Made by a program: the position numbers and the translations under genes | Notes under the pieces: generated by a model | What the model was told of the DNA's origin: nothing | The model's database searches: none | Seen by the model: the letters and a program-made list of their open reading frames with translations, nothing else | Assembly: GCF_964355755.1 (NCBI RefSeq) | Contig: NC_092678.1 | Location: 12,150,352-12,214,351 of the forward strand | DNA: 64,000 nt | Direction: 5' to 3' | Origin: Antedon mediterranea | Taxonomy: Eukaryota > Animalia > Echinodermata | Part shown: piece after piece, positions 2,103-41,070 of the stretch | Numbering within the stretch: position 1 is the first letter of the stretch | How the letters are laid out: each line of letters opens with the position of its first letter

Positions 2103-3858
2103 TATGATACATTATACTTCATAGTCACACATAAATACTGATGTACGTCGGAAGGCTATATACTTTATGCATGCTGCCTGACTGCCAGTGATCTAAACAA
2201 TTATAGGTACGCAGTTGTCTGGCGGTGTCCTTTGTACGAATCGTTCGTGCGCCAGCTCGCTATGAGACGCGTCAATATCATGTTACTTGCAGGGACCAAA
2301 CATTTATTTTTCAGGTTAAAATCGGCAATTCATTTGCAGCTTTTAGAAATTTACAGACACGTATTACTAGTTGACGCTCATACAGAGAAGAAGGTTCACG
2401 AACAAGTTTACGAATTTTTCAATTTACAAACAACTTTTTGTACTGTGGGGCACGTATTTGGAGGATTTTTGGAGATGAGGGTGAGGTATTGGGCATGTCG
2501 GGGATGGGGGTTCGCAGTTGGTTAAGGGGGGTTCGCTGTAAAGGGGGGGTTCGCCCGAACCATAAAAACCCCCCCTGGCTACGGGCCTGGATTGAAACCA
2601 TGTATGTGATCTGATTTATATGTAATTTAGACTAAAATAATCATAAAGATTTTAGCTTTACAATGGTACCAAGAACGATTTTTAAAGCGCAATATGTAAA
2701 TCGTAATAGTAAAATGAAAGTAACACACTTTTTGAGTTTTTCGTAGTTTCGCGCAAGAAAGTCGAGATATTCGCGATTTTGTGCAAGACATCATAGACTA
2801 GTCCAGATAGTCATATTTCCACTTTAATAAGATGCTGTAGGCATTTCGTGTTAAAAGCGAATAAACATGTGTTTTAGGGTAATTTTGGGGTGCTGAATTC
2901 AAATTTGCTGTTTACCCAGCTCAATTTTTAAATCTTCACCCTTAAAATGTGAAAAACAAAATGGCCGCCATTTTAAACGTATTTTGGCTTATAACTTGAC
3001 TTTTAATTAACGTAGCAAGTTAAAATTAGTTTCTATACCTATGTTTGTGATACTGAGGATTCCAAATATATTGTTATTAAAGTTGTAAATATTCTATTTC
3101 AACCTCCATGTTGGAATTCAAGATGGTCGCCATTTAAAACGTATTTTGGCTTAGAACTTAACATATAAGTAACATAGTAGGTAAGAAATGATGTCTATAC
3201 AGTACCTATATTTGTTATACTGAGGATTTCAAATATATTGTTATTACAGTTGTAAATATTCTATTTCAGTCACCATGTTGGAATTCAAGATGGTCGCCAT
3301 TTAAAACGTATTTTGGCTTATAACTTGACATATAAGTAACATAGTAGGTTAGAAATGATGTCTATACAGTACCTATGTTTGTGATACTGAGGATTCCAAA
3401 TATATTGTTATTAAAGTTGTAAACAGCCACCATGTTGAAATCAAAGATGGCGCCTATTTTAAACAAACACACACCCACAGGGTAGTAACAAAGTGCGATG
3501 CAAACAAACAAATGAAAATAAAAAACTCACAAAGGGATTGTTCTTTATGTGTAAAATATTTTAAAACGAGATAGATGATAATGATGATCATTGTCAAGTG
3601 TTTAGAAAAATTAATGAAAAAAGGAGGTAATACGGAATTCATAAATGTAAAAATGTTACTGATGACATTTGGAATTAACAAAAATGTGTTAAATAATATG
3701 ATTTAATGACATGAGATAATAGGAATGTGAATAAAAGAGAAAAAAAAATATATATACAGTATATAGACATCACAGAATAAATTCTAATCCGCCCGATATA
3801 ATGAAATTTAATTAATTAGAAAGAATAAAAATGACGAAACCTGTGAGAATGAGAAAAA

Positions 3859-3929
3859 GCCCTCTCCGAGATTCAAACCCGGAACCTTCTGCTTGATATG
3901 CAGATCTCCTAACCATTGGACCACTGGGG
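3859..3929 (-). mobile_element. tRNA-derived SINE head or tRNA pseudogene
   Basis: minus strand CCCCAGTGGTCCAATGGTTAGG...CCGGGTTTGAATCTCGG has A-box and B-box-like motifs; acceptor stem poor; a decayed relative lies at ~43694-43750. Confidence 0.5.
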
Positions 3930-5415
3930 TTTTCATTGTATTGTTCCAATTCGATTGTGCGAGGCAGCGAGGCACACCAAATATAAGTGTGAGGCATGCG
4001 AGGCATATAGTTTACAATTTCAAAAAGGTGCGAGGCATATAGTTTACAATTTCAAAAAGGTGCGAGGCATTTCTTAACGGGCTATTATGCTATATTATAG
4101 GCCTAATAATCAATTATTTATATTTTTAAAATAGGCCTAGCGTATCGAAATAGATTCGTGTATACACTCATCGTGCTATGTTGTATATTTTTATTTAACG
4201 ATTGTTTTTTTCAAATTGTTTGTTCATAATGATAATGAAAGAGTTGGTCAAAAAGACTTCACAGAATTAATTCAATACAACAACAACGTATTTATATCAA
4301 AACATTTCTCGGAATAGAAATAGATTGTAAAATTGGTAAAAAAACAAACATGTTAAATGTATACAAACAACAACTGATAAAGACATCAGTATAATAATAA
4401 TATATAAATTGAGAAAACTGCTAAAAAGTAGTGTATAATTTATTTTATTTATGCATTGATATTACCATATATTAATGATTGTTGTGAAATTTGGGGTAAC
4501 ACTTATAAAAGTACAGTACAAAATGTTTACAAAAAAAAGGTACTGTAATTTATAAAATTATCAATAGTGTAAGATGATAGCATTAGCCATAGTAGTAAAT
4601 GATACTGGATATCAGAGGAAGTAGAGGTTTCGTTTTGAGGTTTTTTCATCTACAGTATTATATATAATGCCTTCAATTCAGAATAAGGAAATAGAATTAA
4701 CTAGCTTCACGGCCAAAATGATAATAGAGGACTAAAACAAAGTGGAATGCGTCAATTTCTCATGCATTTATTGGTGAAAAACACGTTTAATCTCAATATA
4801 TTTTTGTTAATTTGTCAATAAAAATGCTGTAATATGTTACTGCTGATACTGTTCTGTTTTCAAAGAATAATAATCGATCCTAAATTTTGGGAAACGATAA
4901 AATGATGCCTCGCATTTTTTGATGATGGTAAAACGATGCCTCGCATACATTTCTGACTTGCCTTGCTTTTGCGCATATCCTAGGCCTGTTGTGCATGTAA
5001 TTCTCTGTGCCCTGGGGACCTGTGAACACCTGCACATAGCCGGCCTAGCCCATTAAACAATTATTACGCAATAAACATTAAGCTATATATGCTTTGCAAT
5101 TAGTGGTAATATGTAGGCCTACACACATAAATATAAGTTTAATTTATAGTATAATAATTAGATATCAAATTAATAGTTTTCATACAATAATATCGTGGAT
5201 TTATATAGCGCCTAATGTTGTGAAACATTATTACCCCAGTCTATTGGATCAAACGTGTATGGAAACATCCAAAATTGAAATGACACATGAAATAAATAAT
5301 GTCATATTGCAGTTCTTGGTATAACAAGTGAGCATCTTCATCTGCAATCAAAGTTGCTATTTCATTGCCAGAATTTTACCTGTTTGGTGACCAAGTCAAC
5401 AACTTTTTTGGCTTC

Positions 5416-6592
5416 TATATATAAATTTACGTAAGGGCAAAATTCGATAAATCTCGGTTAATTTATAGAATTTTTACTCGATGGTATATAAAGTTGGTTC
5501 ATACTTTCGGTACTGATTTTAACCATCTGACATAACCCTGTTTATTAATTAAATTGAGTTAGGTAATTAGTTATTGACGATTAAAACGAATTTAGGTTCA
5601 ACGATTTGCCCCAAATAGGGGTGTTTTCCGATATATACACTGTCTAATGGATGTCCATCTTGAAAAATACCCGCCACAAAAATGCGAGGAGGCTTCGCAT
5701 TTTCCTATCTCCTCCTACGATAATTGTTTTTAATAGCTGAAAACTGATTGAACAGCTAGAGTACAGCATCATAAATGTTGAAGACAGGCCGATTTTCTTT
5801 AAAAAATACTATTTTGATAGATTTAATATACGATTATACAAATGTATTGATTTGCGATGAATGGAACATCCCAGAGTTTGGTTTAACACAAGTAGGTAAA
5901 TTTATGAGCCCTTGGTTTAACACATACGGTAGGTAAATATATGGGCCCTTTGAGAATAAACTTGCAATACTTTGACAATACTGTAAATACCTATTAACTA
6001 TTTTTGGTCGTCATTTGAATCGAACATTTCTTACTGTGAATGTTCATACTGTTAGATGTAATATAAAAATATATACAAATAAACTTTATTACTGAGATTG
6101 TGGTTAGGCTCTACTGATATATAAACACATTATTATATACAAATAAACTTTATACTGACAGTTCCTTCTCAACGTTTGTATTAATTAATAATTACCAATA
6201 ATATAAACGTCGTAGTGGTGTATCGTGACATGTACTTTGATATTTCAATCGATTATGACAGTGACAGTTTTAACAAAGTATTAAATCGCAAATGTTTTAC
6301 TTTATTTAGAGGTATATTATTTATAGGCCTATAAAACATGAAAAAAATATTTCGTTACTGAGTGGATAAAGAATATATTTAAAAATTGTTCCTCTTTGTA
6401 CCTATCCGCTTTCCCATCCCTCAACCCTAATGTTACATACAAAACACAAATTGGGTTTCTTTAAATGAGTCCAAATCAAAAATTTGGACTCATTTTGTGA
6501 TAAGTTTCTCCTTCGGAAGTAATTCCCAGGGTGCTAATTTTAGTTGACTACATAAATCATCGTGTCTATTTTTTCGTTTCTGTAAACGACAA
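5416..6592 (+). repeat. ~1.1-kb dispersed repeat, copy 1
   Basis: colinear with 13334-14406 (e.g. AAAGTTGGTTC..ACTTTCGGTACTGAT ... CTGTAAACGACAA). Confidence 0.85.
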
Positions 6593-8788
6593 TGTATTAT
6601 AGTCCTGCGGTACGTACATTTGAAATCGCCAGTTTTGTTACGCAGAAATTACTGTGTATTCGAGAACCATCTGTGGGCACGACCTAGATGGTACGCGAGC
6701 GAAAATATTCTATTTCAGCCGCCATGTTGAAATCCAAGATGGCCGCCATTTTAAACGTATTTTGGCTTATAACTTGACTTTTAATTATCATAGCAAGTTA
6801 AAAATAGTTTCTATACCTATGTTTGTGATACTGAGGATTCCAAATATATTGTTATTAAAGTTGTAAATATTCTATTTCAGCCTCCATGTTGGAATTCAAG
6901 ATGGTCGCCATTTAAAACGTATTTTGGCTTATAACTTGACAAGTAACATAGTAGGTTAGAAATGATGTCTATACAGTACCTATGTTTGTGATACTGAGGA
7001 TTCCAAATATATTGTTATTAAAGTTGTAAATATTCTATTTCAGCCGCCATGTTGAAATCCAAGATGGCCGCCATCATTTTAAACGTATTTTGGCTTATAA
7101 CTTGACTTTTAATTAACATAGCAAGTTAAAAATGGTTTCTACCTATAGTCCAGTAAAAGTATGGTTGAACCAAGATTCATCGAGCATAAAGTACATTATA
7201 TTGTGCCAACAAGGATGAAGAACCATCAGTTAAAGATACTGCATATCAACGGTATTCAAAGTGTTTGGGTAATTTTCTAACTTGCCATCACTACCGGTGA
7301 CCGGTAAACAAGCTTTGTTCTTATGTCATCCACACCAGCATTTGTTATAAATCTTTATGAATTTGAAATAATTTGAAATGGTGAATAAATTGATAATTGG
7401 TACTTAATTACAGTATTTAAATTTCTACAACAAGCAGTATTTAACTTCCTTGGCAAAAAATTTCAGGAAATGGAATCGAAACTTTGAATGCAGATGGAGC
7501 ATTAAATCTATTAGGGGCCTACTATTACTTTGCCATCATTAATAAAATATTTTAAGACAGAAGAAGCAATATAGTGGAAAAATCTGTAGTTAAAGAAACC
7601 ACTGGGGAGCAAATGGCAACATCTTCAATGGCATTTCGAATGAGAAACGATCTGTACTTGCAAAGAAACAAAGATATGAATTATGAATGAATTCGAAACA
7701 TGCATCTTTTGTTCAGTCCAAAATTAACAAGACATCTGATTAATAATAATTAATAGTAATTCACTTACAGTAGGTGGTCTATAAGTAAAACCAACCGTTA
7801 TAAGGAGATAATATACAGGGCTTCAAAATGGTAAATGGCGGCCATTTTTAATTTATGCTAATGAACCCACTTCACGATGTCCAATTTTGGTAAACTTTGG
7901 ATATGATGTTAATTTGGACCATATCCACCAGACAAAACAAAAACAAATTATGTTGCAATTTGTTCTAGGTTCAACCATACTTTTACTGGACTATAGGTAG
8001 AAACCATTTTTAACTTGCTATGTTAATTAAAAGTCAAGTTATAAGCCAAAATACGTTTAAAATGATGGCGGCCATCTTGGATTTCAACATGGCGGCTGAA
8101 ATAGAATATTTACAACTTTAATAACAATATATTTGGAATCCTCAGTATCACAAACATAGGTACTGTATAGACATCATTTCTAACCTACTATGTTACTTGT
8201 CAAGTTATAAGCAAAAATACGTTTTAAATGGCGACCATCTTGAAATCCAACATGGAGGCTGAAATAGAATATTTACAACTTTAATAACAATATATTTGGA
8301 ATCCTCAGTATCACAAACATAGGTATAGAAACTATTTTTAACTTGCTATGATAATTAAAAGTCAAGTTATAAGCTAAAATACGTTTAAAATGGCGGCCAT
8401 CTTGGATTTCAACATGGCGGCTGAAATAGAATATTTTCAACTTTAATAACAATATAGTTGGAATCTTCACTATCACAAACATAGGTATAGACACCATTTT
8501 TAACTTGCTACGTCACTTAAAAGTCAATTTATAAGCCAAAATAAGTCTGAAATGGCGGCCATTTTGTTTTTCACATTTTAAGGGTGAAGATCTAAAAATT
8601 GAGCCGGGTAAACAGCAAATTTGAATTCAGCACCCCAAAATTACCCTAAAACACATGTTTATTCGCTTTTAACACGAAATGCCTACAGCATTTCATTTTT
8701 CTCAAATCTGGACTAGTCTATCACAATATAAAAATATCGCCCGGTGAGATCAACAAACAACAAAAAAGTTACTTACACGGCACCGATA

Positions 8789-11297: not shown

Positions 11298-12039
11298 TAA
11301 GAAAGGTCAGGTTGTACATTAGTTCTGAAAAGAACTGTTGAGTTCTATACTTAATAAAACAGTATATAGTTAAAAACACCTTCGTAATTTTAAGTAAATC
11401 AGGGAAGATTCCTTAGATAAGCACAAATTAAGGTTTTTTTAAATAGCTTAAAGATAAATTATAATGTAGAAAAAATATTGCTTTTAAGCGAAATACAATA
11501 ACTAAGTTTAAGAAAAAATGGAAATTACTGGAAGATAATTAAATTACACATAATATTTTAAATTTATAAAATGAAATTTAGTTAATAAAAAAGATTTTAT
11601 TCATTTAAATGTAGAATTTCATAAAAACTGTTAATATTTTCTTTTATTATTTGTGTTTGTTTGTAATAATATGAAAATTTAAAATTTACTGAACAGACAC
11701 CCTACTATCTACTAGAACGAGGGATCCTCTCACTAATACTCTTAGTCTTTATTTTTTTCCAATCATATATACAGTAATACAAACAAATATATTTTGAAAA
11801 GAATATTGGATATTGTATCGGTTATTTCTATTAATTTGTCAATTTGGTATAAAATAAACTCACGGATACAATAATTATCATTTATGTTACATTTATTATC
11901 ATGACTGTCAAAACAAAGTAAACATTTTTGATTAGTCAGTATTTTCTAAACATTTCCTTCAATCACTTTATATTTAGGTACCATATTTTTATACAAATTT
12001 GAAATGAAAAGATGCTGGCTGAGGAATACGTTGGTATAG

Positions 12040-15000
12040 TTAACGTCCATTCATATCTCCATAACTTACGAACATCCGTTCTAGAAAAGATTAATACAGT
12101 GTAAGTAAATTTATTAAAGTTATAATATGTTCATTTTTGATGCAGTTATTATTCAAGAAATTGATAATAATATTATAATATGACCGCAATGCTATATAAA
12201 TTGAATTTTGTTGACAAAAGTGAGGGATCCAAGATTTTGATTTAGGGGGACCGATGGCCTAAAATTGTAATATGAAGACATGAAGGTAATATGAACATAT
12301 ATTATGTCCTTTCTTTTGCATTGTAATTTTTAAATTTTCCCTCACCACCATGGACAATGTTGCTGATTAGTATTCTAACTCATGATATCAACAGTTCAGT
12401 GTGTAGGCGTAATAATTACTGGCCCTACGAGATGAATGGGTGTGTGTTTTACCTTTAGATAGTGTAGTAAAAACTGTATTTTGCCAAAAATAAATTAGAA
12501 AATAATCGCCTCTATATTACAACATCAATTGTGATGGCGGTAATGATTACAATGCTAAAGATAATGATAAATGTAGGTATAAATTGAGTTCATGCAAAAC
12601 ATAAGTCGTACGTGGTGGTGGAGGTCGTGGTGGAGGTTGTGGTGGATAGCAGATGAAATCCTGGCCACTAGATACACAATCATATCCAATTCCACATGGG
12701 CTTGGTTGACATGGGTCTACATCCGTCTCTATAGTATCAAACAAATCAAATGTAATCAATATACAGTATATATTCATTTTTTTTAATGGAAGAGGAGAAA
12801 AATTCTTCGCCTTGCAAAATTAGCTGATACGTGAGAAAAAAAAAAAAAATGAAAAAAGAAAAATGTTACCGTAGGTGCAGACTTACAAAAGTTGACATAA
12901 CTTATACATAATAAGTTTAATAGGGATTACAACTAAATAAGATAAAGCAAAATATAAATAAGGCCTAAAGAAATGAGTAAGCAGGTACTGTTTATACTGT
13001 GACGTAGGAACCAATACGTTTATTTTACAGTTTAAATATTAAGGGTAGGAGAACGTTTAATAGTTCATCTAATGAATTCCAGTTCCAGTTTTTGATCGGT
13101 TTAGTTAATTGATTGGCGTATAATATTGGAGTTGGATGGAATATTTAGCCTATCGGTTGACGTGTATTAATGGCCGATTATTTTTAGGTGGATAGAGTTA
13201 CTAAAGGATGATATTTAAAGAGATCATTACTATAACCATATGCTACATTTTTATTCTAGGCATACTCTAGCCATGAGCGTCCCCACACAATTCCACGTTG
13301 TAACTGAGGTTTTGAACGTAAGTATTCTTCATCTATATATAAATTTACGTACGTCACTTCTAGAATGTTTACTCGACTAGTATATAAAGTTGGTTCGTAC
13401 TTTCGGTACTGATTATAACCACCAGTTTACTAATTAAATTGAGTTAGATAATTAGTTTAAAACGAATTTAGGCTCAAAGATTTGCCCCAAATAAGGGTGT
13501 TTTCCGATCGTAGTATACACTGTTTAATGGATGTCCATCTTGAAAAATACCCGCACACAATAATACGAGGAGGCTTCGCATTTACCTACGATAATGTTTT
13601 TAACAGCTGCAAACCGGTTGAACAGCTCGAGTACATCATCATTATGTTGAAGACACACCGATTTTCTTTAAAAGATACTATGCTGATAGATTTAATATTC
13701 GTTTATACAAATGTATTGATTTGCGATGAATGGAACATTCCAATCTCTCAGTCTCAGTATAACTATTTGGTTTAACACAAGTAGGTAAATTTATGGGTCC
13801 TTTAGATATAGTATTACAATAATTTTAAAATACTGTAAATACGTATTAACTCATTTTGGTCGCCATTGAATCGCAACTTTCTTACTATGAGTGTGGGTAC
13901 TGGTAGATATATAAACACATATACAAATAACATTTATTACTGTGACTGTGGGTACTGTTATATAAACACATACTATACAAATAAACTTTATTACTGACAT
14001 TTGCTTCTCAACGTTTGTATTAATTAATAATTATAAAAAATATAAACGTCGTAGTGGTTTACATGTACTTTACTATTTCAACGACTGACAGTGAGGGGTT
14101 TAACAAAGTATTAAATCGCAAATGTTTTACTATATTTAGTGGTATGTTATTTATAGGCCTATAAAACATGAAAACATAATATTTCGTTACCAAGTGAATA
14201 AAGAATATATTTAAAAATTGTAACCATCCTCTTGCCTATCCCTAATTGTATATACAAAACACAAATTGGTTTTGTTTAAACGAGTCCAAATCAAAAATTT
14301 GGACTCATTTTGTGACAAGTTTCTATTTCGGAAGTAATTCCCAGGGTGCTAATTTTAGTTGACTACATAAATCATCGGGTCTATTTATTTGTTTCTGTAA
14401 ACGACAAAACATATGTATTATACTGTTCCTACAAGTCACATTCATCGTATTCGGGATTGTCAATGTTGGACCACTTATCGTCCGCCGGATAGTACTAGTG
14501 ATTATTTTGATAAAATAATTGATATTATTGAAATGGCATCAGCTGAAAACAAGGAAATGATTATTCTGAGTGATCTAAATATTGATTATAAATTTGATGA
14601 GGATCTATATAAGAACCCAGTCAATTTGATCGAAAATATGTTCTCTCTGCAACAATTAATTACCAAACCAACATGAGTTACTCAAATGACGTCAACTTGT
14701 ATTGACCTTATTCTCAGCTCAATACCTGACCAATATTCTATAAGTGACGTAGCTAAAGTTGCTCTCAGTGATCATTTCGTGGTATATACTTATTTGAAGT
14801 CAATTAAGGAACCTATTAAACATAAAACTGTTACTTTTAGAAATTTCAAAAACTTTGACAAAAATGCATTTATCAATGATATACGGGAATGGGAATCAGT
14901 ACAAAATATCGAAATTTCCTTAGATATAAATGAAATGTGGACAAATTGGCGGAATTCATTCTTAGCTATTTGTAACAAGCATGCACCATTCAGAACAACA

Positions 15001-15794
15001 TACCCCATGGATGTCACCCGATATTATTAAGTTAATATAAACGTGATTATTGTAAGACACTATCCGACAGGCACAAAACACAACACCATCTACAAGAATT
15101 TTGTAGAATTAGAAATTTAATGAATAAGAGTATTAAGGAAATAGGAAACAAATTTAAAAATGACCCAAAACAGCTGTGGTGCGAACTAAATCAAATTACT
15201 GGTCAATCAAAGGAGAGACAGTCAATTCATCCCGAATTCACCGCGTTGGAGTTGAGAATCGAATCACACTGAAATCGTCTATCTAGTCTGTCGCCATAAA
15301 ATTACGGTTCGATTTTACGCTAAATTGTTCTAGCCTTTAAAGGCGCTGCGCAAAAAAACACCAAATAATAAATGCGGTCAGTAGGCTATAGGCCTAGAGG
15401 TAAATATTTAGGCTTATCTTTCATTCAAACGGAATTAAAAGACAAGAATTTACTTAGATGTTATAGAAAACAAATAATGAATGTTTTTATATCCGTGCTA
15501 TGGTACTTTGAGTGACAAAGTAAATATATAATATCTTATAATAAATTTGGTTTACTAGAACTTGCTAAAGCATTGTATGTTATTACTGTTTGCGCCAATA
15601 ACAGTACACTATTTTATGATGACGGGTCTGCCTACTGTACCCAACATTACCTAAGTTAATGCAGGTTAATTTGAATGTAATAAAGAAACTATAAATTAAG
15701 AGAGGAGACTCCACTAACCGCCATCTGTTGCAGTAGCTTCAAATATTACGTTTGTTAAAAGAAGAAACACGAAAGTCATCAGAACTCGAGCCAT
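12040..15794 (-). CDS. small secreted Cys/Pro-rich peptide, family copy A (77 aa, or 88 aa with the microexon)
   Basis: exons 15794-15719 MARVLMTFVFLLLTNVIFEATATDG, 12728-12612 ETDVDPCQPSPCGIGYDCVSSGQDFICYPPQPPPRPPPP, optional 12452-12420 RKTHTHSSRRA, 12080-12040 (Q/K)RMFVSYGDMNGR*; all GT-AG and phase 1; probable non-coding exon 1 ends at 17629. Confidence 0.75.
13334..14406 (+). repeat. ~1.1-kb dispersed repeat, copy 2 (inside a gene A intron)
   Basis: colinear with 5416-6592. Confidence 0.85.
14460..15250 (+). mobile_element. degenerate LINE (CR1/L2-like) endonuclease fragment
   Basis: APE motifs YRPP, DLN, TSTCIDLI, SDH followed by RNFKNFD, broken by stops. Confidence 0.8.
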
Positions 15795-17404: not shown

Positions 17405-20400
17405 ATTATAGGTTTCATATTTAACTAATGGTAAAATAAAGCATTAATAATGTGTATGGGATCGATATATCTTCTGCTAAATATGTGCGAGTGTTTCTGT
17501 ACCGTCCGTATATGACTAGACAGAAATCAGAACTGGCATGTTTATTATGGCTTTTTTGAAAAGAACAATATTTCATTTATTAAAAACAATATTGGCTTCA
17601 GATTGAAAAATAATTAACTCAGGCTTACCTGACAAAACAGAATGATGTAACATCTAAACGAATGAATTGAAATGTCTGTACACAACATGTAGGCCTGTAT
17701 ATTAATAAGCCAATGGTAATCATCAACTCATTAAATTTTAACCTTGTGGTTTTATGTACAAAGATAATACAATAAAAATAAAATTAACATGTTTGTCTCA
17801 AGTAAAATTTACATAATAATTACATCAAATTTTTAAAGAATAATTCATATATCACAAATAAATCATTATTTTGATAAATCGAAAATGCTAATGTCTCAAT
17901 AAATCATTGTGCTTAACCAGTCCTTATTAATAAAACATGTTAATTGTTAAACTGATTCAATTCAACATCAAATACTGCTGACCTTTATATTATTACAGTT
18001 TTTCTTTATTGATATTCTGATTGACATTTTTATTCTGTTTTAACAGTACAAAGGTAAACTAGATTTAATTCGTCACTATGACGATTTATAGATTATATGC
18101 ATTGATATAAATAAAGATAATTTATTTTTAAAAAGATATATTGATTGATTGATTTTGTTAGAATCTTTAATTATTTATAATATATGAAGATAGGATCTTG
18201 GTAACGCAAACACAATAGACATAAGTTACTTTTTTTTCTCCTGTAGATTTTATTCATTTCATTTCATTCATTATTTGAGTTTAAGAGTGAATAAAATATG
18301 ATGAAATTGATGATGAAAGGTTGTAAAACAAAAATCGGGCAAAAGGAGTGCGTGTTACCGTTTAATGCGCAGTGCGCGTACCAAAATCTGCGAACTAATT
18401 GTTAACACTTAAAATTGCCTGAAAATTTAAGCACTCGTACGCATGCGTTATATGCGAGTACCAAATTTGGTTTAATTCTTGTGAAGATATTATTACAAAC
18501 GTGATTTCATAAAATTGGACGTAGACCGCGTAATTGTTGATTGCGTACACCATGAAAAGCTTAGTACATCGATTCCTGGCCATAAGGTCTACTGAAAAAT
18601 TGATGTAGCTTGATTAAATTGATCTCAAAATTATGCTAAGGATAAGTAAAGATTCTGACAAAATCAATAAGGTTAGGCCTATATTTCATGATAATGCATA
18701 TAATGATGAACGAACGACTTTAAATTATATTCTTTCCCTCTGTAGACCTCTAACTTTTCCATTTTGTTTCTTTGTGGCTTTATTTTAAACAGGGTTACAA
18801 AAATAAACAAAATCAACCAACATTAGTGTTTGTACTAATTTTTTATTTAGACCGTGAGCAATATCTGGCATATTATTGAAAAGCTGGTTTACAGCCATTT
18901 ATTTACATTTACAAAATGTAATAAAACATTTTATTAAATTTAGCCTAATCATGTTTGCAAAGTGTAAGAGTATCAATTAATGCTCTATGTTTTGATAATA
19001 CTGAATAAGGATCATACCAAGTAATAAGGGAAAGAAGAAGATTGCTACATTTGAAGGTGGAGATGGACAATACACGTTTTTAAGACTGTGATTTGGCAAT
19101 CAAAGATGGGAAATGACAGTAATGTATCGCGCACTGCAATCGGCAAAACGATCGTACTTTTTCTAATCTGTGTGTGGGAACCGTCACAGACGATGTTTAA
19201 TTTAGACTTGCGTCCAATGCGTATATATAGTTAGTATTTTATTTGTAATAGAAGAGGGGAGGTCGCATCACCAAATCCCCCCGCCAGCCCCCACCTCCTT
19301 CCCCCCCCCCCAAAAAAAAAGAAAGCTGAGATGAAAACAACTGATTGAGAAGAAAAAGTAAAATCGAGGGCTTTGGAGGGAGAAAAGCTGAAGAATTTCA
19401 CTTTTCAATGCATTTACATGTGACACACAATTGAATACATGATCGTTTGCGCTGTATTTGCAATTATTATTTTGAGTTCCAACGATACACATTCCGAAAA
19501 GCTCCAATGACCTCTTTCGAGTTCATCACAGAGTGTTCAAGAGATCATCATTTCAGACAATAAACATTCTTTTTAGTATTAAGTGAAATTAAATAGCCTA
19601 AATTTCACATCAAACTTTATGAAACTATTTTTTAGGGATATTGTAATATATTGTTATGAGGTTTCTGACTTGTAATGAAGACTCTACTCGCTTGACTGTA
19701 GTAGTAACACATATATTATTTATTCAATAATACGTTATATACTCAATACAATTCAATACAACTAGAAACAGGAATAGAGGATACAGTGATGCTGTCGGTG
19801 AGGTGTGAGGTGTGTAGGGCTGCTTCTGGAGAAGTGGCTGTGAGGTGTGTAGGTCTGCTTCTGGAGAAGTGGCTGGGAGGTGTGCCTGGGCTCTTCTGAA
19901 ACTTGGGGGTATATTGGCTCAGTTCATTAGCATATGTCATTACATTTATGGAGCTAATGATTGGTCTTAAGTTAATCCAGGGGTGTTTAAGTGGGAGTGA
20001 TTGATCTTATCTGGGGAGGTTACAATGATGAATTGGCGCTGTCGAATTTCTGCTTAAAACTGTCAATATCTAATTGTTTTACGATGGGAACGGTTAGGAA
20101 GGTCAAATAAACTGTTTACTTTTGGGATTTAACTATGAACTAAATGGACTAAATGTACTTTTGAAACATCTGGACAAACTCTCTTCTGGACTTTCTGGGC
20201 CAAGTTTGTGAACTTATTTGAATCCTAATACAAAGGTTGATTTGTTAATTATAAATGTATATCATTATATTACAATATGTATTGTTTTTGTTTATTTGTC
20301 TGTTTCTCTATTTGTTTCATACACTTTAATTTAATAGTTTTTAAGAAAAAATGCAAAATAAAACAAATTAAAATAAATTTAGTAATTTTGTTTCTTAAAT

Positions 20401-20832
20401 TTAGTTTGGATATGAAAACAAATTTAGGCTATACTATACTAATTTTACAGAAATATAAGTTTGTGAACAGAGAAAAACATACTGTAAGTTTGACAAAAAA
20501 CTTTAAGGAATGGTCAGCAGGTTTTCTAAATTAAACCTAAGTTAATCTATATAAACGTAAAATATTACCAATCTATTTAGAGAAGACACCATATTTCAAT
20601 ATTGATGAAGTCAAATACACAACAGAATAACCTAAGTAGCAACAATGTACTGCAGTACATCAATCATAAAAAATGTAAACAGACAGCTTACTTGCCATAC
20701 ACCAAGATACCTCTTAAGATTCGATTTACAATTAAAATTGGATAAACCTTTTCAATAAAGAAGATATAAAGAAAATTCAGGCTATTAACATTTACTTAAA
20801 AATGAATGAGAAAGTTTGTAGATTTAGTTGAA

Positions 20833-23372
20833 CTAACGGTGATTATCCCCAATACTTAGAAACATCCCACGACCTGAAAAAGGTAAATAATTTTATTATA
20901 GATAAGCACTAATGTATTTAGATTTTTTGAGATTGACAAATCTCAATATTCATTGATTATAATGATTATCAATGAATATGTAGGTAATAATGATTATCAA
21001 TGAATATGTTTGATTGCAATCATCAACACTGTCAACAATGATAATGCTTAAAATGATAAATGTATAATGAATGACAAATTCCTGATTACAGTACATGAAA
21101 TCGACCATAATCAAAGTGTCCACATAAACAATGTACTGGAGAATACAGTTACCTAGGGTAAAGGGTTGGCGGGAGTGTTGAATGCAGCTATATAAAAACG
21201 TATTGAATATAGTAATGTTGTAGCACTATGACCGATGTCGAGTATAACATCAGTATAGCATACGAATGTCGAGTATAATATACGAAGCCGAGTATAACAT
21301 ACGAATGCCGAGTATAACATACGAATGCCGAGTATAACATACGAATGCCGAGTATAACATACGAATGCCGAGTACAACATACGAATGTCGAGTATAACAA
21401 ACGAATGTCGAGTATAACATACGAATGTCGAGTATAACATCGGATGTCGAGTATAACATACGAATGTCGAGTATAACATACGAATGCCGAGTATAACATA
21501 CGAATGTCGAGTAAAACATACGAATGTCGAGTATAACATACGAATGTCGAGTATAACATACGAATGTCGAGTATAACATCGGATGTCAAGTATAACATAC
21601 GAATGTCGAGTATAACATACGGATGTCGAGTATAACATACGAATGTCGAGTATAACATACGAATATCGAGTATAACATACGAATGCCGAGTATAACATAC
21701 GAATGTCGAGTATAACATACGAATGTCGAGTATAACATACGAATGTCGAGTATAACATACGAATGTCGAGTATAACATACGAATGTCGAATATAACATAC
21801 GAATGTCGAGTATAACATCGGATGTCGAGTATAACATACGAATATCGAGTATAACATACGAATGTCGAGTATAACATACGAATGTCGAGTATAACATACG
21901 AATGCCGAGTATAACATACGAATGTCGAGTATAACATACGAATGTCGAGTATAACATACGAATGTCAAGTATAACATACGAATGCCGAGTATAACATACG
22001 AATGTCGAGTATAACATACGAATGCCGAGTATAACATACGAATGTCGAGTATAACATCGGATGTCGAGTATAACATACGAATATCGAGTATAACATACGA
22101 ATGCCGAGTATAACATACGAATGTCGAGTATAACATCGGATGTCGAGTATCACATACGAATATCGAGTATAACATACGAATGTCGAGTATAACATACGAA
22201 TGCCGAGTATAACATACGAATGTCGAGTATAACATACGAATGTCGAGTATAACATCGGATGTCGAGTATAACATACGAATGCCGAGTATAACATACGAAT
22301 GCCGAGTATAACATACGAATGCCGAGTATAACATACGAATGCCGAGTATAACATACGAATGCCGAGTATAACATACGAATGCCGAGTATAACATACGAAT
22401 GCCGAGTATAACATACGAATGCCGAGTATAACATAAGAATGCCGAGTATAACATACGAATGTCGAGTATAACATACGAATGCTGAGTATAACATACGAAT
22501 GCCGAGTATAACATACGAATGCCGAGTATAACATACGAATGCCGAGTATAACATACGAATGTCGAGTATAACATACGAATGTCGAGTATAACATACGAAT
22601 GTCGAGTATAACATACGAATGCCGAGTATAACATACGAATGCCGAGTATAACATACGAATGTCGAGTATAACATACGAATGTCGAGTATAACATACGAAT
22701 GTCGAGTATAACATACGAATGTCGAGTATAACATACGAATGTCGAGTATAACATACGAATGTCGAGTATAACATACGAATGTCGAGTATAACATACGAAT
22801 GTCGAGTATAACATACGAATGTCGAGTATAACTTGAATTATTAAAATAAACAGTGAACAAACCGTACGTTTTTTGGGTCTTTCCGTGCAGCTGCCAGAAT
22901 CGACATTACATGTAAATCCAGCCTCACATGTATTTGGTTCACATGGGCTTTCTATAACAAAAAAATTAACAAGTATATTTTCAAAACCAATAATAGTAGT
23001 TTAAGGTAAATGTTTAGTAACATTGTATCTTTACCAAATGCCTAGTAATTAACCTTTTGGATCAGTCACTTGAAACATCTCTTTATTGTATAATTATTAA
23101 GCATATTGCTATTTAATATAGATAGTAACCAGTGATTATAATATAGACCTACCCTTTCGTAACCATGATAGTTGTGTTTAAATATAGCACTATGTTAACA
23201 GTATTTTAATATTTATTGATTGATTCTTTTCTAGCTGTAAATAGTATATCATCAACATATTAAAAAATATAGCATGAACATAATACTACTAACCGCCTTC
23301 TTGTGCGGCAACTTCAAACATTAAATTTGTTACAAGCAGGAATACTATAGCAATCAATACTACTCGAGCCAT
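20833..23372 (-). CDS. small secreted Cys-rich peptide, family copy B (67 aa)
   Basis: exons 23372-23294 MARVVLIAIVFLLVTNLMFEVAAQEG, 22951-22868 ESPCEPNTCEAGFTCNVDSGSCTERPKK, 20873-20833 RRGMFLSIGDNHR*; canonical splice sites, all phase 1. Confidence 0.75.
21236..22832. repeat. 20-bp minisatellite (~80 copies) in a gene B intron
   Basis: unit GTCGAGTATAACATACGAAT with GCC/GTC and 19-bp ...CATCGGAT variants. Confidence 0.97.
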
Positions 23373-23530
23373 CTTCTGAAAATAAAAAAAAACCTGTAAA
23401 AATGATTATTCATTAGTTTATCATTAAATGTAAACAAAATAAAAATACTAAAGTCTTAATATGATTATGCTTCATCACATTTTGTGTCTTTGTTTCGTGT
23501 CAACCTCGACGTCTATTTTGTTCTTTTCCT

Positions 23531-25360: not shown

Positions 25361-25597
25361 TTCTGTATTTCTTTGTCAGCAGTCGATCACGTCTTCCTGG
25401 ATTTGGTCTTTGCCAATTACAATATTATCTTATCCTATGAACATGGCTTGGTCTAATACAAATGATCGTCGGATATACGTTTTGGTACAAACTCCAGCCC
25501 AACGGGTGGTAGCGAACGATCAATCAATCTGCTTCCTTGTCTATAAGGTTGATTTGAGGCGCAATTACTACATTTCTCAACAACTATCTCAACCAAT

Positions 25598-28203
25598 ATG
25601 CCTACCTTGCAGAAAACATATGCAGGATTAAGCATCCTACTTTTATTTCTGTTTCTACAGAAAAACCTTTATAATGTTCATTCAGTGAGGAATACGATGT
25701 TCAATCACGAACCATCCTCGAAAGTAACGACGTTCGTTACTGGATCAAGGCGTTTCTCGAGCCGGTCGATGAGTTACTATTCTAACTATTCGTGCTGTGC
25801 ATCCTTTCAGCCGAAATTAACTCAATTCGGAGATGTAGAATTAAACCCGGGTCCGCCACAATCAACAACTCAAAATGTTAGTGGTAAAAATGGTGAACAT
25901 CATATTAATATGTATTACCAGAACGTTAGAAGTCTAAAAAACAAAATGGATATACTGCACTCAAGTATGCAGACACGTCACACATGTTAAACCACCTTCA
26001 TGATATCGTTTCCTTCCTTAAAAGATTTTGTCATTGATTCTGAAATCACGATTCCTGACTTTAGGCTCTACAGACGAGACAGGCAGGAGGACGGACGACG
26101 TGGAGGAGGTGTTCTTATGTACATCTCAAATCGATTGACCAGTCGTAGATTATTTCACCTGGAAGACGATGTCAACAAAATAACTTGGGTCGAAGTAATT
26201 ATATCTCGATCTTTGAAATTACTAGTTGCCACTTACTATCGCCCACCTAATCTCAAACGCGATTCTGTTGAACATCTCATCGAAACTTTGAAGTCATCCA
26301 TGCGGAGCTATCCAGTCCATAAACTCCTAATCGTAAGAGATTTTAATTTCTCGGACATACTCTGGCTCCCTGACGGCACATACCACGCACCAACAAACTG
26401 AACTATTTACGGACTTTGTTCTCGATAGACTTAACCTCAAACAATGCAACTTAAATAACACTTGTAACAATAACATTCTGGATTTAGTCTTGAGTAACAA
26501 CAACGATTTGGTATACGAGATAAAAACTGGTCAAAATGTGTTCGATTCTGACCATGAATCAATCTCTTTCATGCTCAAGTTTGACGATAACATTGCTTTT
26601 GTTAATAATTTTACTAGATACCAATTTAATTATAAAAAAGCAAACTTTGAAGAACTAAACTAAACTTTTAAAAGGGTCCCCTGGGAAGTCCTATTAGATT
26701 TTAGTAACGATGTAAACGATAAGCTACTATTAGATACCTTGTTCCAGTTGTGAAAGTTAAAAAGAAAAGACCACCCTGGTTTGATAGAGAATTAGTAACA
26801 GTTTTTAAGGACAAGCAGCATTTTCACAATATCTGGAAGAAATTTCCTTCCATTATTAGCAGGCAAAACTTCTGTGTTGCCCGACGAAATTAAAAAAAAG
26901 GAAAATTAAGTATAAGTCTTATTTAACTTCATTGTCATCTAATATTAAAACCAACCCCAAACCATTTTGGTCATGGTTAAACAACAAAAGAGTCTTAAAA
27001 TCCACTGTTTCTACCATTACCAATCATGCTAATAAGGCTGCGGAGACGCCGCAAGCCAAAGCTGGTTTGTTTAATAATTTTGTTGTTTCTAATTTCTCAG
27101 ACTCCAGGGACAATGAACCTGCGGAGTATCGATGTCTCCCAGAGGTAAACGCTGATGTCCCGAACAACATCATTATTCGGCAGGATGAAGTTGACAAGAT
27201 CTTGAGGTCGCTCGACGTGCGCAAGGCGGTGGGCAATGACCCTATTAGCAACGAAATCCTTAAGTTCTGTTCTACCTCCTTATTCTTTCCAATCACGCGC
27301 ATATTTCGTTTCTCTATCCAGACTGTTGTTTTCCCTGAAAGATGGAAAACCGCCAACGTTTTCCCCACACACAAAGCTAATTCAATACTTAAAGTTATTA
27401 GGCTAATTACAGACCCATCTCATTACTCCCCACTATATCAAAAGTTTTCGAACGCATTGTCCACAAGCAACTCTTGAACCACGTTTATCCCCATATCGCT
27501 ACTGAACAACATGGCTTCATGTCCGGTAGATCGTATGAGACCAATTTGACCATGCTAATGTCTACTTTATATGAAGCCATAGAGCATGCGATATTATTTA
27601 CACAGATTTCACTAACGCTTTCGATAGAATACCCCACAATCTTCTTCTTCTCAAACTCAAGCAATTTGGAATCTGTGGTAATCTTCATGCTTGGTTCAAG
27701 AGTTACTTGTATAGGAGACTCCAGAGAGTCCAAATTCATGCCACAAGAATCGATCGGATTCATACTAAATTCATAAAGTTCCTCGGCCCAGCAGCCGGTT
27801 CTCTCAACACCAGTAAATTCTTGCCAAGTACTAGACGCACACGAACCGACATGATTTTTCTTTTTAAATGCCTAAATTCAAAGTTTGAATGTAGATTTGT
27901 CTCTCAATTTAATTTTCGTGTCCTTGTGCGTAAACTTCGTATTAATAATATTTTAAAAGTGCAGTTTTCTCGTGTTAATGTATGTAAAACGGGTTGCTCA
28001 TTCTTATAATAGTTCAAATGTTTCCTTACATCGATATTTTTAGTTGTAATACTTCTGCTTTTGATGTCATTTTTGATAATATATAAATTTGTTTGTTCCT
28101 TGTTCTTTTTTTATGTAAATCAAATGTATATTTTATGGCGATCCTGTTTTGGTGTTTTTTTCTTTACACTGTTGGATCTTGAATGAATAAATAAATAAAT
28201 AAA
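25598..28203 (+). mobile_element. degenerate CR1/L2-clade LINE (2A-like motif, APE, partial RT, (TAAA)n tail)
   Basis: GDVELNPGP, YYQNVRSL, RRDR..RGGGVL, YYRPP, KAVGNDPIS, WKTANVFP and QHGFMSGRS motifs across frameshifts; TAAA repeats at ~28186-28203. Confidence 0.9.
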
Positions 28204-28559
28204 GTCTTACATACGGTAATACACCTGAATATTTATATTTGCAAATTACCCTTTTCGTTCGGCTTATGACTGTGACAATGTTTTGTTTTTAATATCTAGA
28301 AATAATATTGTTGCACTAAAATGTAGAAGGTGCTATGCTATAATGATATTCAAAATATACTTTTATACTATTATTAATCTAATAATTAAAATTAAGATAC
28401 TCCTTGATTTTACAACCTAAAAATAGACCTATATATTTATAGAATTTCAGATTGTAAAACTAATTTACTCTAATAATTTTGAGAAAACATATAATTAAAT
28501 ATTGAATAAAGTATGATGACAACAATGTAGTGTGCAGACTTCTTTAAGAACAAAATCTA

Positions 28560-30246
28560 GACTACTCGTGATGGACTGTACGGTGATAGCAGCAACATCC
28601 ATGATGTCTCTTTTCATTATGATCTTCTCTCTCCAGTTGATTCTGCGGCAGACATCATCACGTTATCAGAACTAGAACCGGCCGATGAAGATGAAATCAA
28701 GTCTATTCTTAGCAGATCATCCTGTAAATCTTCAGTTGACCTAGATCCAATTCCAACATCGCTTTTGAAGAAATGTCTTGATGTCGTGTAACCATCCCAT
28801 CTATAACTTTGATTGTTAACAGAGTATTGCGGAGGGATTTTTCCATGACGCTCTAAAGATATCGAACATTCGACCTTTAATCAAGAAACCTAACGTGGAT
28901 ACCGATGAGTTGAAAAATTATAGGCCTGTGTCCAACTTGAAGTTTCTCGGAAAGACCATTGAACGCTTTGTCTCAATACGTCTTGCTCAACATACACAGT
29001 TTGCTTGACCCATTTTAATCGACGTACCGACCACATCATAGTGTTGAAACTGCACTACTGCGTGTCTCCAATGATGTCCTACAAGAAATGGACAAGGGAA
29101 ACCTCATCGCACTTATTTTACTCGATCTCAGCGCAGTTTTTGACACAGTTGACCACACTGTTCTGTTGGCGCGACTCAAACATTACATAGGGCTGGATGG
29201 CAAGGTTCTTGATTGCTGTTCCTCATACCTCTCTGGTCGTCCACAAAGAGTGTGTGTAGGAAATTCGGAGTCCGATTCTTTTGTACTGGACTATTCTGTT
29301 CCACAAGGGTCAATTTCAACTGGGGATGTAGAGGTTAAGTTTGAGACTCTTAAAAATTGTGTTGTCGAGCTGAAACCTGGATGTCTCATAACTTCCTTAA
29401 ACTGAATGATGACAAGACGGAATTCATTATTTTTGCATCTCCTCATCAAAAGAATAAATGCAAAGATCTCAGCTTCAGCATCGGAGAGTGTGAAATTGAT
29501 CAAGCTCCATATGTCAAGAATTTAGGCATCTTGATTGACTCATCAATGACCATGAGTACAAAAATTTCCAGAATAACCAGTAGATCAACCTATCATCTTC
29601 GAAATATTAGAAGGATAAGGAGGTATATTTCAAGGGAGGCAACTCGAATCATAACTGAAACAAGGAAATTTGATCACATCACTCCGATTTTGAAAGATCT
29701 CCACTGGCTGCCGGTCTCATATAGAATAATTTTCAAGATTTTACTTATAACGTTCAAGACATTAAATGGTGAAGGTCCGCAGTACCTCCGTGATTTGCTG
29801 GTCAGGCATGCGCCAGCTCAGAATCTTAGGTCTAGTAGTCTGCAACAACTTATTGTTCCTAGGTCTAGGCATTCATGGGGTGACAGGTCAGTTGCTGCAA
29901 CTTGTCTCTGGAACGCATTACCATCACATATTAGATCTAGCAAGTCTACTGATGTGTTCAAGAGTGCACTTAAGACACATCTGCTGTCGAAATTTGTAAG
30001 GCTATTGTTTAGTTAGATACCCACATTACTGAGAACACCTGTGAGTAATGAACTGGCAGGTCTGTGCACCTTAAATTGCCGGTAAACGAAAGCAGTGAGA
30101 TGGGTTCGATTGGTCTTTTTTTTCCGTTTTGCAAATATTTTTGTTGTTTTTAGTTTCATGGTTGCATTTCTCATGGTTTTCACAAGCGCCTTGAGCACTT
30201 TGTGGATATGTGCGCTCTATAAATCTTATTATTATTATTATTATTA
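28560..30246 (+). mobile_element. degenerate L2-type LINE RT 3' fragment with (TTA)n tail
   Basis: NYRPVSNL, LLDLSAVFDTVDH, VPQGS, LKLNDDKTEF, HITPILKDLHWLPV motifs; TTA repeats at ~30226-30246. Confidence 0.9.
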
Positions 30247-30417
30247 AGTACATTAATCAGAATTAATCAGTTTACGGAAGGCTTACTCTTACCTCTTAAG
30301 ATTCAATTTAAATTAGATAGACTTTTTAAAATACAGATTAAAAAAAGAAATTACAAAGTTTCAGGCTATTAACATTTACTTCAGAAAGTATGAGAAAGTT
30401 TATAGGTTTTGTTGAGC

Positions 30418-31660
<1,243 letters not shown>

Positions 31661-32230
31661 ACATTAGAAATATGTAGGTGACTGCTTATTAATAAATCAT
31701 TCCATATGTTTATTATGTATCATATTAGGTTAGGTTAAATGCGTTATGTTGGATATGATACTAGGAGATACATTAATAGCCGTTTTATTTTTAACAAAAT
31801 AAAAGGCTAACATTATTCTACAATGAACGTAAAATTATCATTACTTTTAATCATTCAAAGAAGACAGTATTATTCTTTTGATTGATTGCTTTATTTAGAA
31901 TAACAAATTACATATCCAATAACAATGAAAGAAAACGAAAATCACATTAAAATAACATTTTCTCGCATTTAATGATGAGATTTTAATTTAATCAGCTACT
32001 ATTATTGATGAAATTCATTTTCCTGTTAAATTAGATAACAAAAGATGGCGGCAACAGTGTTGTAGTGCAGTACATTAATTAGAATAGTAAAACATAAGCC
32101 CTGACACACACCGAGACTAGAAATATATATTACAATTAGATAGATTTTTAATTAAAAAAAGTTTCAGGCCATTATTTATTTTTTTTCAAAATAAATAAGA
32201 AGTTCTTTGTTTGTTTAAGGTGAAATGAAC

Positions 32231-32878
32231 TTAACGATTAATATCCCCAGCACTTACGAACATCAGATCTAGAAAATAAAAGGTAATAGTTATAATGATG
32301 ATAATGATGATCATCATCATCTTCATGATCATCATCATCATCACCATCATCATTATATTAAACATAGGAGATTATAGTATTAATTGTGCTGGTTTGATAA
32401 TGATAATAAAGAATGGTAGTCAAGATGCTGGTGTACAGTAGGTTTTTAATCCAATTGAGCTCTCAAAAATATCGGTGAACAAACCGTACTCTGTGCTTGT
32501 ATGCATCTACGAGTCTTGGCACCAGGAGTGACTCTACACCTTGATTTAGATTTATGGACATTTCCTATTAAACAAAATGAAACTAGTGAAGCAAATTAGG
32601 ATGTATGCATATGCAAAAGAGATCAAATTGATACGCCCTTGATCGTCTTGTTAGTAATCCAAAATAGATACTACAAAATAACTGAGAGATTAATAAGAAT
32701 TAAATTTAAAAAGTAAGTAAGTATTGTTTTTGTTTTATAAAATTGAAGTTTCATATGATATATTTATATATTGACATGTAGGCTTCACTGTATACTAACC
32801 GTCTTTTTGTGCAGCCCCTTCAAATATTACGTTTATTATTACAAGTAAAAATATTAAAGTAATCAGAGCTCGAGCCAT
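32231..32878 (-). CDS. small secreted cationic 2-Cys peptide, family copy C (63 aa)
   Basis: exons 32878-32800 MARALITLIFLLVIINVIFEGAAQKD, 32564-32490 GNVHKSKSRCRVTPGAKTRRCIQAQ, 32268-32231 NLMFVSAGDINR*; canonical splice sites; probable non-coding exon 1 donor at 33171. Confidence 0.75.
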
Positions 32879-36447: not shown

Positions 36448-37428
36448 TTAGCGATACGCATCTCCAGCGCTTGGGAACATCAAACCTAGAAAAAAAGTTG
36501 TCGCTGTTATTCTTTCAATTCCTCATGTCCAGAACATAGTACACATAAAGTATAGTAAATAAAATAGTAAACATATGACATAAAGTAACTCTTTTTAGCT
36601 TATTGTGTTTTCCTAGCTCTGTGGTGATTTGGAAAACTTTACAGATTCGAAACAACCAAAAAAAAAATTAATAAATTAAAAAAAAAAACATTTCACAATA
36701 AAATACAATTGAATGTTAAAGCAATTTCATCTGGTTTCAATAGTAATCAGTTCATTAATTATAAACCAGTAAAATGAAAATAAAAGGTTTTAGTTTAAAT
36801 AATAGTAACGTAATAACTTATAACAAACCATTTAAAAGGTCAGGCTTTTAGGTAGGCCTATATCTGAAGCTGAAGCCTTGGCCATCTTGATAACAAGTTA
36901 ATGTAGGGGTAATACAAGGGTTCGGTTTACATGGGTCGTCGGTATTTTCTATAACAGAATAATGAAAATGATAAAGTAGAAAAACCATTGTCTGACAATT
37001 TAATCAATAAGAAATGACTTTAAATTAAATTAAATAAATTAACTTATTATAATAGCCTAAAGATTAATTGTCTAAAAGTGAATGAGTTGGCACCATGATA
37101 GCATTAAGGTGTTATTTTATCATTTCCTCATATACAGTATTACAAAACATTTTTTCCGGCGATCTTACATTAGGAAAAAGTAAAGGTAATATGATAATTG
37201 AAGACTCAAAATCTAATAACATTATAATAAAAATTTATAAGAAGGTTCACTAACCACCATTTTATTTTATTTCTTTATTCTGATATAAAATCAATAGGAT
37301 AAAAACACAAAAAAGTACTGATACGGCAAACTTATTTCCATTGTGCGGTCCTAATTTCCATCTTGTGGAGGATTTCCAAATACGGCGGTTACAATCAGAA
37401 ATGTTAAAACAATCACAACTCGAGTCAT
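36448..37428 (-). pseudogene. family copy D, disrupted
   Basis: signal exon MTRVVIVLTFLIVTAVFGNPPQDG is split by a 97-bp insert that adds TAG; Cys exon from 36948 ENTDDPCKPNPCITPTLTCYQDGQGFSF lacks the 4th Cys and a GT donor; tail exon 36485-36448 xLMFPSAGDAYR*. Confidence 0.7.
37261..37357 (-). mobile_element. 5'-truncated retroposon 3' end inserted in the copy D signal exon
   Basis: ATGG duplicated on both sides; insert ends in the A-rich tail AATAAAGAAATAAAATAAA. Confidence 0.7.
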
Positions 37429-37670: not shown

Positions 37671-38919
37671 TATATCAATTTACCACTCTTCTATGTGTCG
37701 AATTATAAATAGGCCAATGTTTTTGCTCAGAAAAATATCTTTCAAAATTATCTTCTTCATTTTATTTTTATGACGTCAACATTCCCACAAAAATATTTAT
37801 GTGTCCAGTAATTTCACTTATGACACACACACTGTAGGCTGTATATACTGTATAAAACATACGTTGTTTTCGCTCATATTTTAACACACGTGCATGTTGC
37901 ATCGGCGCAGATTTTATCTTAATTATGTCGGGAAAATGATCTGTTATTCCAAAAGATCACTTTATTCGTCAATGTGACGAATTAAAAACTAGTTATATCT
38001 GCATCGTGATGTCTCTCGCCGTCAATATAGTTAACTATCTTTATCATTTCATCTCATAACATCACCATATATAAGCTCATATTCCTCGTCATCCATTGCA
38101 TTTTTTGCCTTCATTACCATAATGGTATTATGGATATCAATGTAAGTGTTGAATAAAAGTTGTTCAATAATTACAATATTTTGTTAGATTAGTGTTTTCA
38201 AAATGAAAAATAAAACATTTAAGGCCTAATATCAAAAAAACAATAATGTAAAAGAACTGATCTGTTGGTATAGACATACATGGACTGTATAATAATATTA
38301 TTATGATATACCGTATGCTTTTAATATCAATTAAAAATGTATATTATTGAAAACGAAATAGATAAAAAGAAAAATTAAATCGTAAAAATATATGCCAAAG
38401 ACAATAAATCGGTTCGGGTGATTTTTTGTTGTCTCAATGGGTAAATGACCAGTGCACATTGATCATTTAACCCGGGAAGCGACAAGCGTCAAATAGAACT
38501 TCATTCTTATGATGCGATGAATCATTTCATCGGGATTTAGTTAACATGATATATGTATTATCATAATTTTAGCTCGATAAAGAGGAACCGTTTACACGGA
38601 AATCACATCATGATCTTTATGCTAATGAGGTGTTTTGTTGCATAACAGATGGACAAGGATTCGCGCATAGTAAAACAAATGCTGATTGGTTAATTTATAG
38701 ATGAAGTATCGCGTTAAACTATAGGTTTCTCCAGCACATTAACTTTCTATTTACTTGAATGTTGGCTCCACTGATCACGTTAGAGAGATTATAAGCTATA
38801 CAGAATTTGAGCGGTACAAAATGGTAGGCAAAAATGTTTTTTTTTTTCAGTTTTAAATGAATGTATGCTTATTATTGTATATGAATGTATATTCAAGGTA
38901 ACGTAATACAATAGTCTGC

Positions 38920-40912: not shown

Positions 40913-41070
40913 CTGTAACAAGTCATTAAATGTCAGTGACCTTTTATGTGCAAAAGAAACAAATAAAAAGAATACTGTAATTACATCGTAAAATCATCTG
41001 AATAAATCATTAAGGTTATATATTATTGGCTCAATACATTTATATGGTAAATATTGCTGATTGATAAAAC

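Follow-up and report, generated by a model that had tools for sequence, protein, structure and literature searches.

Cluster organization

The stretch of DNA analyzed here (the window, 64 kb) is AT rich and carries a tandem cluster of small minus-strand paralogues, five in number (copies A to E), together with two remnants (G and F) and the 3′ part of a plexin-B-like gene; gene and remnant coordinates below are on the minus strand. Each of copies A to E has three coding exons, namely, a hydrophobic signal-type exon, a phase 1-1 middle exon encoding a putative half of an epidermal growth factor (EGF)-like module, and a last exon ending in MFxSxGDxxR-stop (the tail). Signal-exon ATG codons lie at 15794 (A), 23372 (B), 32878 (C), 37428 (D), and 40567 (E), and the Met codons that open the tail lie at 12075, 20865, 32263, 36480, and 39560, respectively. 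The N-terminal exon is hydrophobic in all five copies by inspection, and the signal peptide is putative. Predicted products of copies A, B, and C are 77, 67, and 63 residues long. Where the original prediction had counted three copies, the window thus holds five and two remnants.

Copy A comprises a likely 5′ untranslated exon (17629 to 17679, placed from a donor site and the copy B layout), the coding part of a putative signal-peptide exon (15719 to 15794, assigned from its hydrophobic N terminus), a middle exon (12612 to 12728; the four-Cys N-terminal half of an EGF-like module plus a Pro-rich linker, phase 1-1), and the coding part of the tail exon (12040 to 12080; Met at 12075, stop at 12042 to 12040), which alone among the copies has an extra Gly codon before the terminal Arg. 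Copy B comprises a signal exon (23294 to 23375; ATG at 23372), a middle exon (22868 to 22951; four Cys, with a basic linker at its end), and a tail exon with 3′ untranslated region (20436 to 20873; Met at 20865, stop at 20835 to 20833). Copy C (32231 to 32878) looks intact, with signal (32878 to 32800), middle (32564 to 32490; two Cys, cationic), and tail (32268 to 32231; Leu before Met) exons.

The remaining units are damaged to differing degrees. Copy D (36448 to 37428) is probably a pseudogene in the window: its signal exon has lost the donor and runs to a stop, its middle exon has Phe in place of the fourth Cys and also runs to a stop, and its tail exon (36485 to 36448) is intact. Copy E (39528 to 40567) has an intact signal exon (40567 to 40486), a middle exon (approximately 39940 to 39869) lacking an AG acceptor, and a tail exon (39565 to 39528) with TAG immediately before the tail Met, a stop that probably arose from a Leu codon. 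Copy G (approximately 30290 to 31701) is a decayed relative of copy B (68 to 84% identity), consisting of a signal-exon remnant and, with no intact middle exon, a tail exon near 30448 that starts R-R-Met and carries an internal deletion. Copies D, E, and G, three of the seven units, are broken. Orphan exon F (38789 to 39027) encodes a half-EGF that reads directly into a tail-like AGDxGR motif at 38935, which shares the top non-tail score over 80,714 windows of seven residues. Exon F may combine a middle and a tail exon in one, or it may be an alternative or real last exon of copy E, in which the middle and tail exons are themselves broken. A weak tail-like match at 48092 to 48111 (plus strand) was rejected, the S-x-G-D part being absent.

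Several repeats accompany the cluster. Between copies B and G (25500 to 30000, plus strand) lie decayed LINE fragments with endonuclease and reverse transcriptase (Pfam E values of ∼3e-4 to 5e-4). Large inverted repeat elements with 162- to 167-nt and 16-nt units, at 2826 to 8697 and 41064 to 43022, are probably non-autonomous transposons. The hexamer AGGCCT occurs 47 times in the whole window, against ∼5 expected from base composition.

The plexin-B-like gene (3′ part, 50517 to 63862; Pfam PF08337) has 18 exons that align to Antedon mediterranea plexin-B-like, most at 92 to 100%, with one reaching 98% identity across 93% of the query; the window therefore belongs to a feather star that is an Antedon or a near relative. 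The gene also matches, at 90% identity, a group of 12 named A. mediterranea plexin-like records that share one 26-Mb contig, plus a second cluster with four isoform records, so that a recent plexin expansion apparently adjoins the peptide cluster. A ligand link to the neighboring plexin, suggested by adjacency, was set aside. The gene served as a splice-site reference: 16 of its 17 junctions aligned well and were kept, one being dropped, and together with the sites of the peptide family they gave 27 acceptors and 23 donors, the family sites in the set being predicted except those of copy B.

Transcript evidence

Assembled contigs of one run (X1), judged spliced and RNA-like from its joints, cover copy B. 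In a 757-nt X1 contig, letters 321 to 757 correspond to 20873 to 20436 and letters 155 to 322 correspond to 23375 to 23294 joined to 22951 to 22866; the two alignments were treated as a single contig because of their equal length and depth. A 342-nt GT-AG intron was removed in X1 and retained in DNA run X3. The alignments share two letters, a GT that belongs to the donor and to the following exon alike; in copy B, the middle exon is thus joined directly to the tail exon. The mRNA therefore encodes K-K-R-R one residue before the tail Met, that residue being Val in the X1 allele and Gly in the window. The predicted order of K-K-R-R, Gly, and tail in copy B is in this way confirmed at its junction, with the allelic Val in X1; a single contig establishes that this form exists and does not exclude other forms. 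RNA support is confined to copy B; C, D, E, and F lay outside the read comparison, and the splicing of copy C is predicted. The last intron of copy B is filled by a 79-copy array of a 20-nt tandem repeat (21252 to 22832), which gives long spurious open frames; the intron is still spliced.

A second X1 contig (475 nt, matched at 23294 to 23369) carries an E-like signal exon spliced to a middle exon that is absent from the window and that, over its first 30 letters, agrees with F at 20 positions in register (hand count). This contig may represent an expressed paralogue, or a very divergent allele, with an F-like middle exon. The family is therefore larger or more polymorphic than the window shows.

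The middle exon as a probable half of an EGF module

Of the Cys of an EGF-like module, the middle exons of A, B, and F retain the first four, whereas D and E have three and C has two; none of the middle exons A to F has the full six in three disulfides. Against Pfam, the copy E middle exon matched EGF with an E value of 0.0014, below the curated cutoff, and a PDB-profile search with the half-EGF returned Delta-like 1 as its top match (E = 0.08). The predicted model contains a β-hairpin (pLDDT, 84; pTM, 0.39), for which the ten top Foldseek rows were all EGF modules or EGF-bearing chains (best E = 0.34, probability of 0.95; none at E ≤ 0.001). ESM Atlas neighbors carry FOLN, DPY, and EGF domains, with best values of 0.81 and 0.80, at the level of a lead. 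This support, weak and consistent, with none of the matches clearing a curated cutoff, suggests that the middle exon is the N-terminal half of an EGF module.

Charge of the middle exon spans acidic (A) to cationic (C). In copy C, where two of the four Cys are lost (32490 to 32564), the mature part has 9 basic and 2 acidic residues, a composition that would resemble that of an antimicrobial peptide.

Conservation of the tail

The motif MFxSxGD occurs five times in the window and in none of 30 shuffles. Amino acid identity is 0.68 in the tail, 0.50 in the signal exon, and 0.27 in the middle exon; beside the tail, identity is 0.39 in the flanking intron and 0.30 in the adjoining 3′ untranslated region. 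Six tail residues are invariant (M, F, S, G, D, and R), and at these there are 18 pairwise synonymous and 0 nonsynonymous differences. Over 10 codons and five copies, with the extra Gly codon of copy A set aside, the tail has a pS of 0.46, a pN of 0.20, and a pN/pS of 0.44, compared with 0.94 for the signal exon and 0.90 for the middle exon, neither exceeding 1; these ratios come from five to six non-independent paralogues and are uncorrected, and the middle exon is near saturation. The original prediction that the tail is the most conserved part is thereby borne out, and the comparison supports purifying selection on the tail, the only exon with such a signature, which is probably the conserved, functional part of the protein.

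The terminal Arg is present in all five full tails and in copy G, and Gly precedes it in only one of six tail exons, that of copy A, where it derives from a private 3-nt insertion. The Gly-Arg end, proposed as an amidation signal, is accordingly no feature of the family, and amidation of copy A, if it occurs, would be a private change. In classical precursor processing, a carboxypeptidase removes C-terminal Arg. Its invariance without Gly suggests that Arg is kept in the active form, which fits poorly with amidation as the purpose of the family.

Linkers and possible release of the tail

Immediately ahead of the tail Met, A and G have an Arg codon and C and D a Leu codon; B has Gly or Val following R-R, and E has a stop. 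Arg thus adjoins the tail in three of six tail exons (A, B, and decayed G). In the linker from the last Cys to the tail Met, basic residues account for 5 of 9 positions in B, for 2 of 14 in A when the microexon discussed below is left out, and for 0 of 4 in E; the 0 of 6 in C agrees with the earlier observation that this copy has no basic site beside the tail. Across the family, the site before the tail is polybasic in B (RNA confirmed), dibasic in decayed G, a single Arg in A without the microexon, Leu in D, and not basic in C and E, so no cleavage site is conserved across the six tail exons and a potential cut site would be a feature of A, B, and G only. Release of the tail as a bioactive peptide, as first proposed, is plausible from the residues present in B (K-K-R-R) and G (R-R-Met) but is not supported as a family property, given C, D, and E.

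Copy A without the microexon has a single Arg after Gln, and the next basic residue is at P7. Monobasic cleavage sites follow an even-position rule for the preceding basic residue, which copy A therefore misses. Monobasic processing is documented in a sea cucumber (PMC6586643), on which ground copy A could be cut without the microexon.

The proposed copy A microexon

A 33-nt microexon of copy A (12452 to 12420) had been proposed to complete a furin-type site. The segment itself reads as claimed: it sits between AAAG and GTAATT, its in silico join to 12612 and 12080 is in frame, and the joined product has R-A-K-R ahead of the tail and ends in G-R-stop. Its standing as an exon fared worse, on acceptor strength, rival candidates, and paralogous counterparts. 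The AAG acceptor scores 0.2 bits, below 26 of the 27 reference acceptors (leave-one-out), which are TAG in 21 cases and CAG in 6, with no AAG and thus A at −3 in 0 of 27; the donor is middling (4.8 bits). The microexon is one of eight in-frame AG..GT candidates in the intron, and three that overlap it score equal or better. A CAG acceptor 21 nt upstream (12473) scores better than its acceptor, and AAG/GT at 12452 is a better donor than its own. Rival candidate exons measure 21 nt (12473 to 12453), 54 nt (12473 to 12420), and 57 nt, and the 54-nt form would also yield R-A-K-R.

Pseudo-exons scoring at least as well as the microexon numbered 12 in 40.8 kb, a count that includes the microexon, its rivals, and two matches inside real exons. 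The copy A tail exon begins with two bases of a split codon followed by Arg, so that an upstream segment ending in A makes K-R; of 289 pseudo-exons spliced onto it, 153 made KR and 7 made RxKR, and the chance of at least one RxKR among eight candidates is P ∼ 0.18. No counterpart of the microexon was found in B to E, and the likeness of the copy A and B introns at this position is not significant, its score being reached by 33 of 381 controls. A 35-nt AG..GT segment in the copy B intron (21187 to 21153), which outscores the copy A microexon, was rejected as an exon, being out of frame, skipped in the X1 contig, and without an acceptor in G. Run X1 has a depth of zero over 11921 to 12562, which covers both the copy A tail exon and the microexon, and so neither supports nor excludes it. 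We regard the microexon as poorly supported and probably intronic, and inclusion of 12452 to 12420 as an exon of copy A is quite unlikely.

Interpretation

The reading that we favor, at about even probability, takes the tail to be the part with which a small secreted ligand binds; a variable half-EGF would carry it, and it would be freed only where a basic linker exists. The small proteins would be secreted, the middle exon would form two disulfides in the fold of an EGF N-terminal half, and Phe, Ser, and Gly-Asp of the tail, with the free C-terminal Arg, would, judging from conservation, dock on a single conserved receptor or enzyme. A convertase would free the tail in B and any other copy whose linker is basic; copy C would act with its tail attached, and copy A would normally be spliced without the microexon, with a single Arg before the tail. 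This reading is weakened because some of the copies lacking a basic site are pseudogenes (D and E appear broken), and two further points count against it, namely, that Arg beside the tail in A, B, and G means that one subgroup keeps a potential cut site and that conservation of the tail would equally fit a sorting propeptide. A more far-reaching account is unlikely: a crinoid-specific signaling family would be in transition, its product changing from a folded protein of EGF origin into a linear peptide that acts free, with the tail as a new receptor ligand that is attached in C, D, and E, cut at R-R in B and G, and cut and amidated in A, possibly switched by splicing of the furin-site exon.

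Other explanations put the weight on different parts of the protein. The genes could be neuropeptide-like precursors whose tail always undergoes cleavage at a basic site and trimming and, in copy A, amidation as well, with the furin site provided by the microexon. We find this doubtful while keeping it in view, as the RNA-confirmed K-K-R-R of B, R-R-Met in G, Arg-Met and the Gly-Arg end in A, and purifying selection on the tail all speak for it, and RxKR is rare by chance (7 of 289 pseudo-exons) and could also be supplied from the better CAG acceptor at 12473. It is opposed by the lack of a basic site in C and E, by Leu before Met in C and D, by the rank of the microexon acceptor below 26 of 27 reference sites, and by an A/B intron likeness matched by 33 of 381 controls; moreover, an Arg lost to carboxypeptidase need not be invariant, and Gly stands in one of six tail exons.

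Variable effectors, broken copies, and a conserved signal exon form a pattern typical of defense peptide families, and here the middle exon is highly variable (identity, 0.27; pN/pS, 0.90) and shifts from acidic in A to cationic in C (9 basic, 2 acidic), three of seven units are broken, a further paralogue seems to be expressed (the 475-nt contig), and the signal exon is conserved at the DNA level. The tail might accordingly be a C-terminal propeptide or sorting signal and the Cys module an effector (in defense, antimicrobial action, or recognition) under birth-and-death evolution, to which we assign a low probability: the cut site needed is missing in C and E, copy C dropped two of four Cys yet kept the tail, and pN/pS never exceeds 1. 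Very improbable, finally, is a metalloprotease-blocking motif whose Asp would imitate the aspartate switch found in astacin prodomains, with the half-EGF serving as scaffold. Phe and Gly-Asp are invariant in the tail and Ile follows in C and F, but FXGDI has two residues fewer between Phe and Gly, Ile comes after Gly-Asp in only one of five tails, and a tail profile run against 177,635 PDB sequences returned no astacin (one match at E ≤ 10, unrelated).

A ten-residue motif stays constant here while carrier, linker, and processing signals turn over. If some copies release the tail and others do not, the cluster would show how an EGF-type exon and a newly added last exon can give rise to a peptide precursor; should the tail serve for sorting alone, this is an ordinary unannotated small-protein cluster.

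Comparison with known systems

Homologue searches with these short queries, whose absence of matches is weak evidence, gave none for the copy A middle exon among 5.8 billion proteins of 49 to 158 amino acids, 0 of 14 candidates at E ≤ 10 for the signal-exon profile, 0 matches for that profile among 1.84 billion representatives, and 0 for the signal-exon DNA pattern in metagenome contigs. Literature searches with tail hexamers and heptamers returned unrelated papers only, and no description of the family was found, although supplements of preprints and subscription papers may contain such peptides; the family is apparently undescribed. Among living echinoderms, crinoids form the sister lineage to all the rest. 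Most of what is known of crinoid secreted peptides comes from one survey (PMC9793003), in whose available parts the family is not listed.

The motif FXGDI is common to astacin prodomains, in which its Asp binds the catalytic zinc (PMC9848320), and the tail resembles it in having an invariant Phe and Gly-Asp within an unstructured segment. The tail differs in being F-x-S-x-G-D, with two more residues between Phe and Gly and no attached protease domain, and exact FXGDI occurs in none of the tails.

Among crinoid pedal peptide/orcokinin-type peptides (PMC9793003), some that follow a dibasic site start with M-F-P-S, which is also the start of the D and E tails, and Phe stands near the N terminus, as does the invariant Phe at tail position 2. 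The tail has 10 residues against ∼17 and occurs as a single C-terminal copy on a Cys-module protein against 12 copies. The other features of that type are lacking in the cluster: Leu stands two residues after Asp in 0 of 5 tails (the Asp-X-Leu core, with X being Pro or Thr), a C-terminal aromatic residue is found as Tyr in one of five (D), and there is one copy per gene in place of a multicopy precursor. When tail, signal, and Cys-start motifs were compared with the crinoid precursors and supplements of that survey, as far as they were available, the M-F-P-S start was the sole match. Crinoid PCNP precursors, like the predicted products here, are small signal-peptide proteins with basic sites, some with two to four Cys; their peptides mostly lie after the signal peptide and end in G-K-R, unlike the C-terminal tail here.

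The closest structural parallels considered are the EGF-like module (Notch, Delta, and factor VII type; PF00008) and the four-Cys FOLN domain (PF09289), with which the middle exon shares the spacing of the first four Cys, a predicted β-hairpin, and a phase 1-1 exon. Relative to these, the Cys5-Cys6 loop is missing, a single module makes up a protein of 63 to 77 residues, and a separate tail exon follows.
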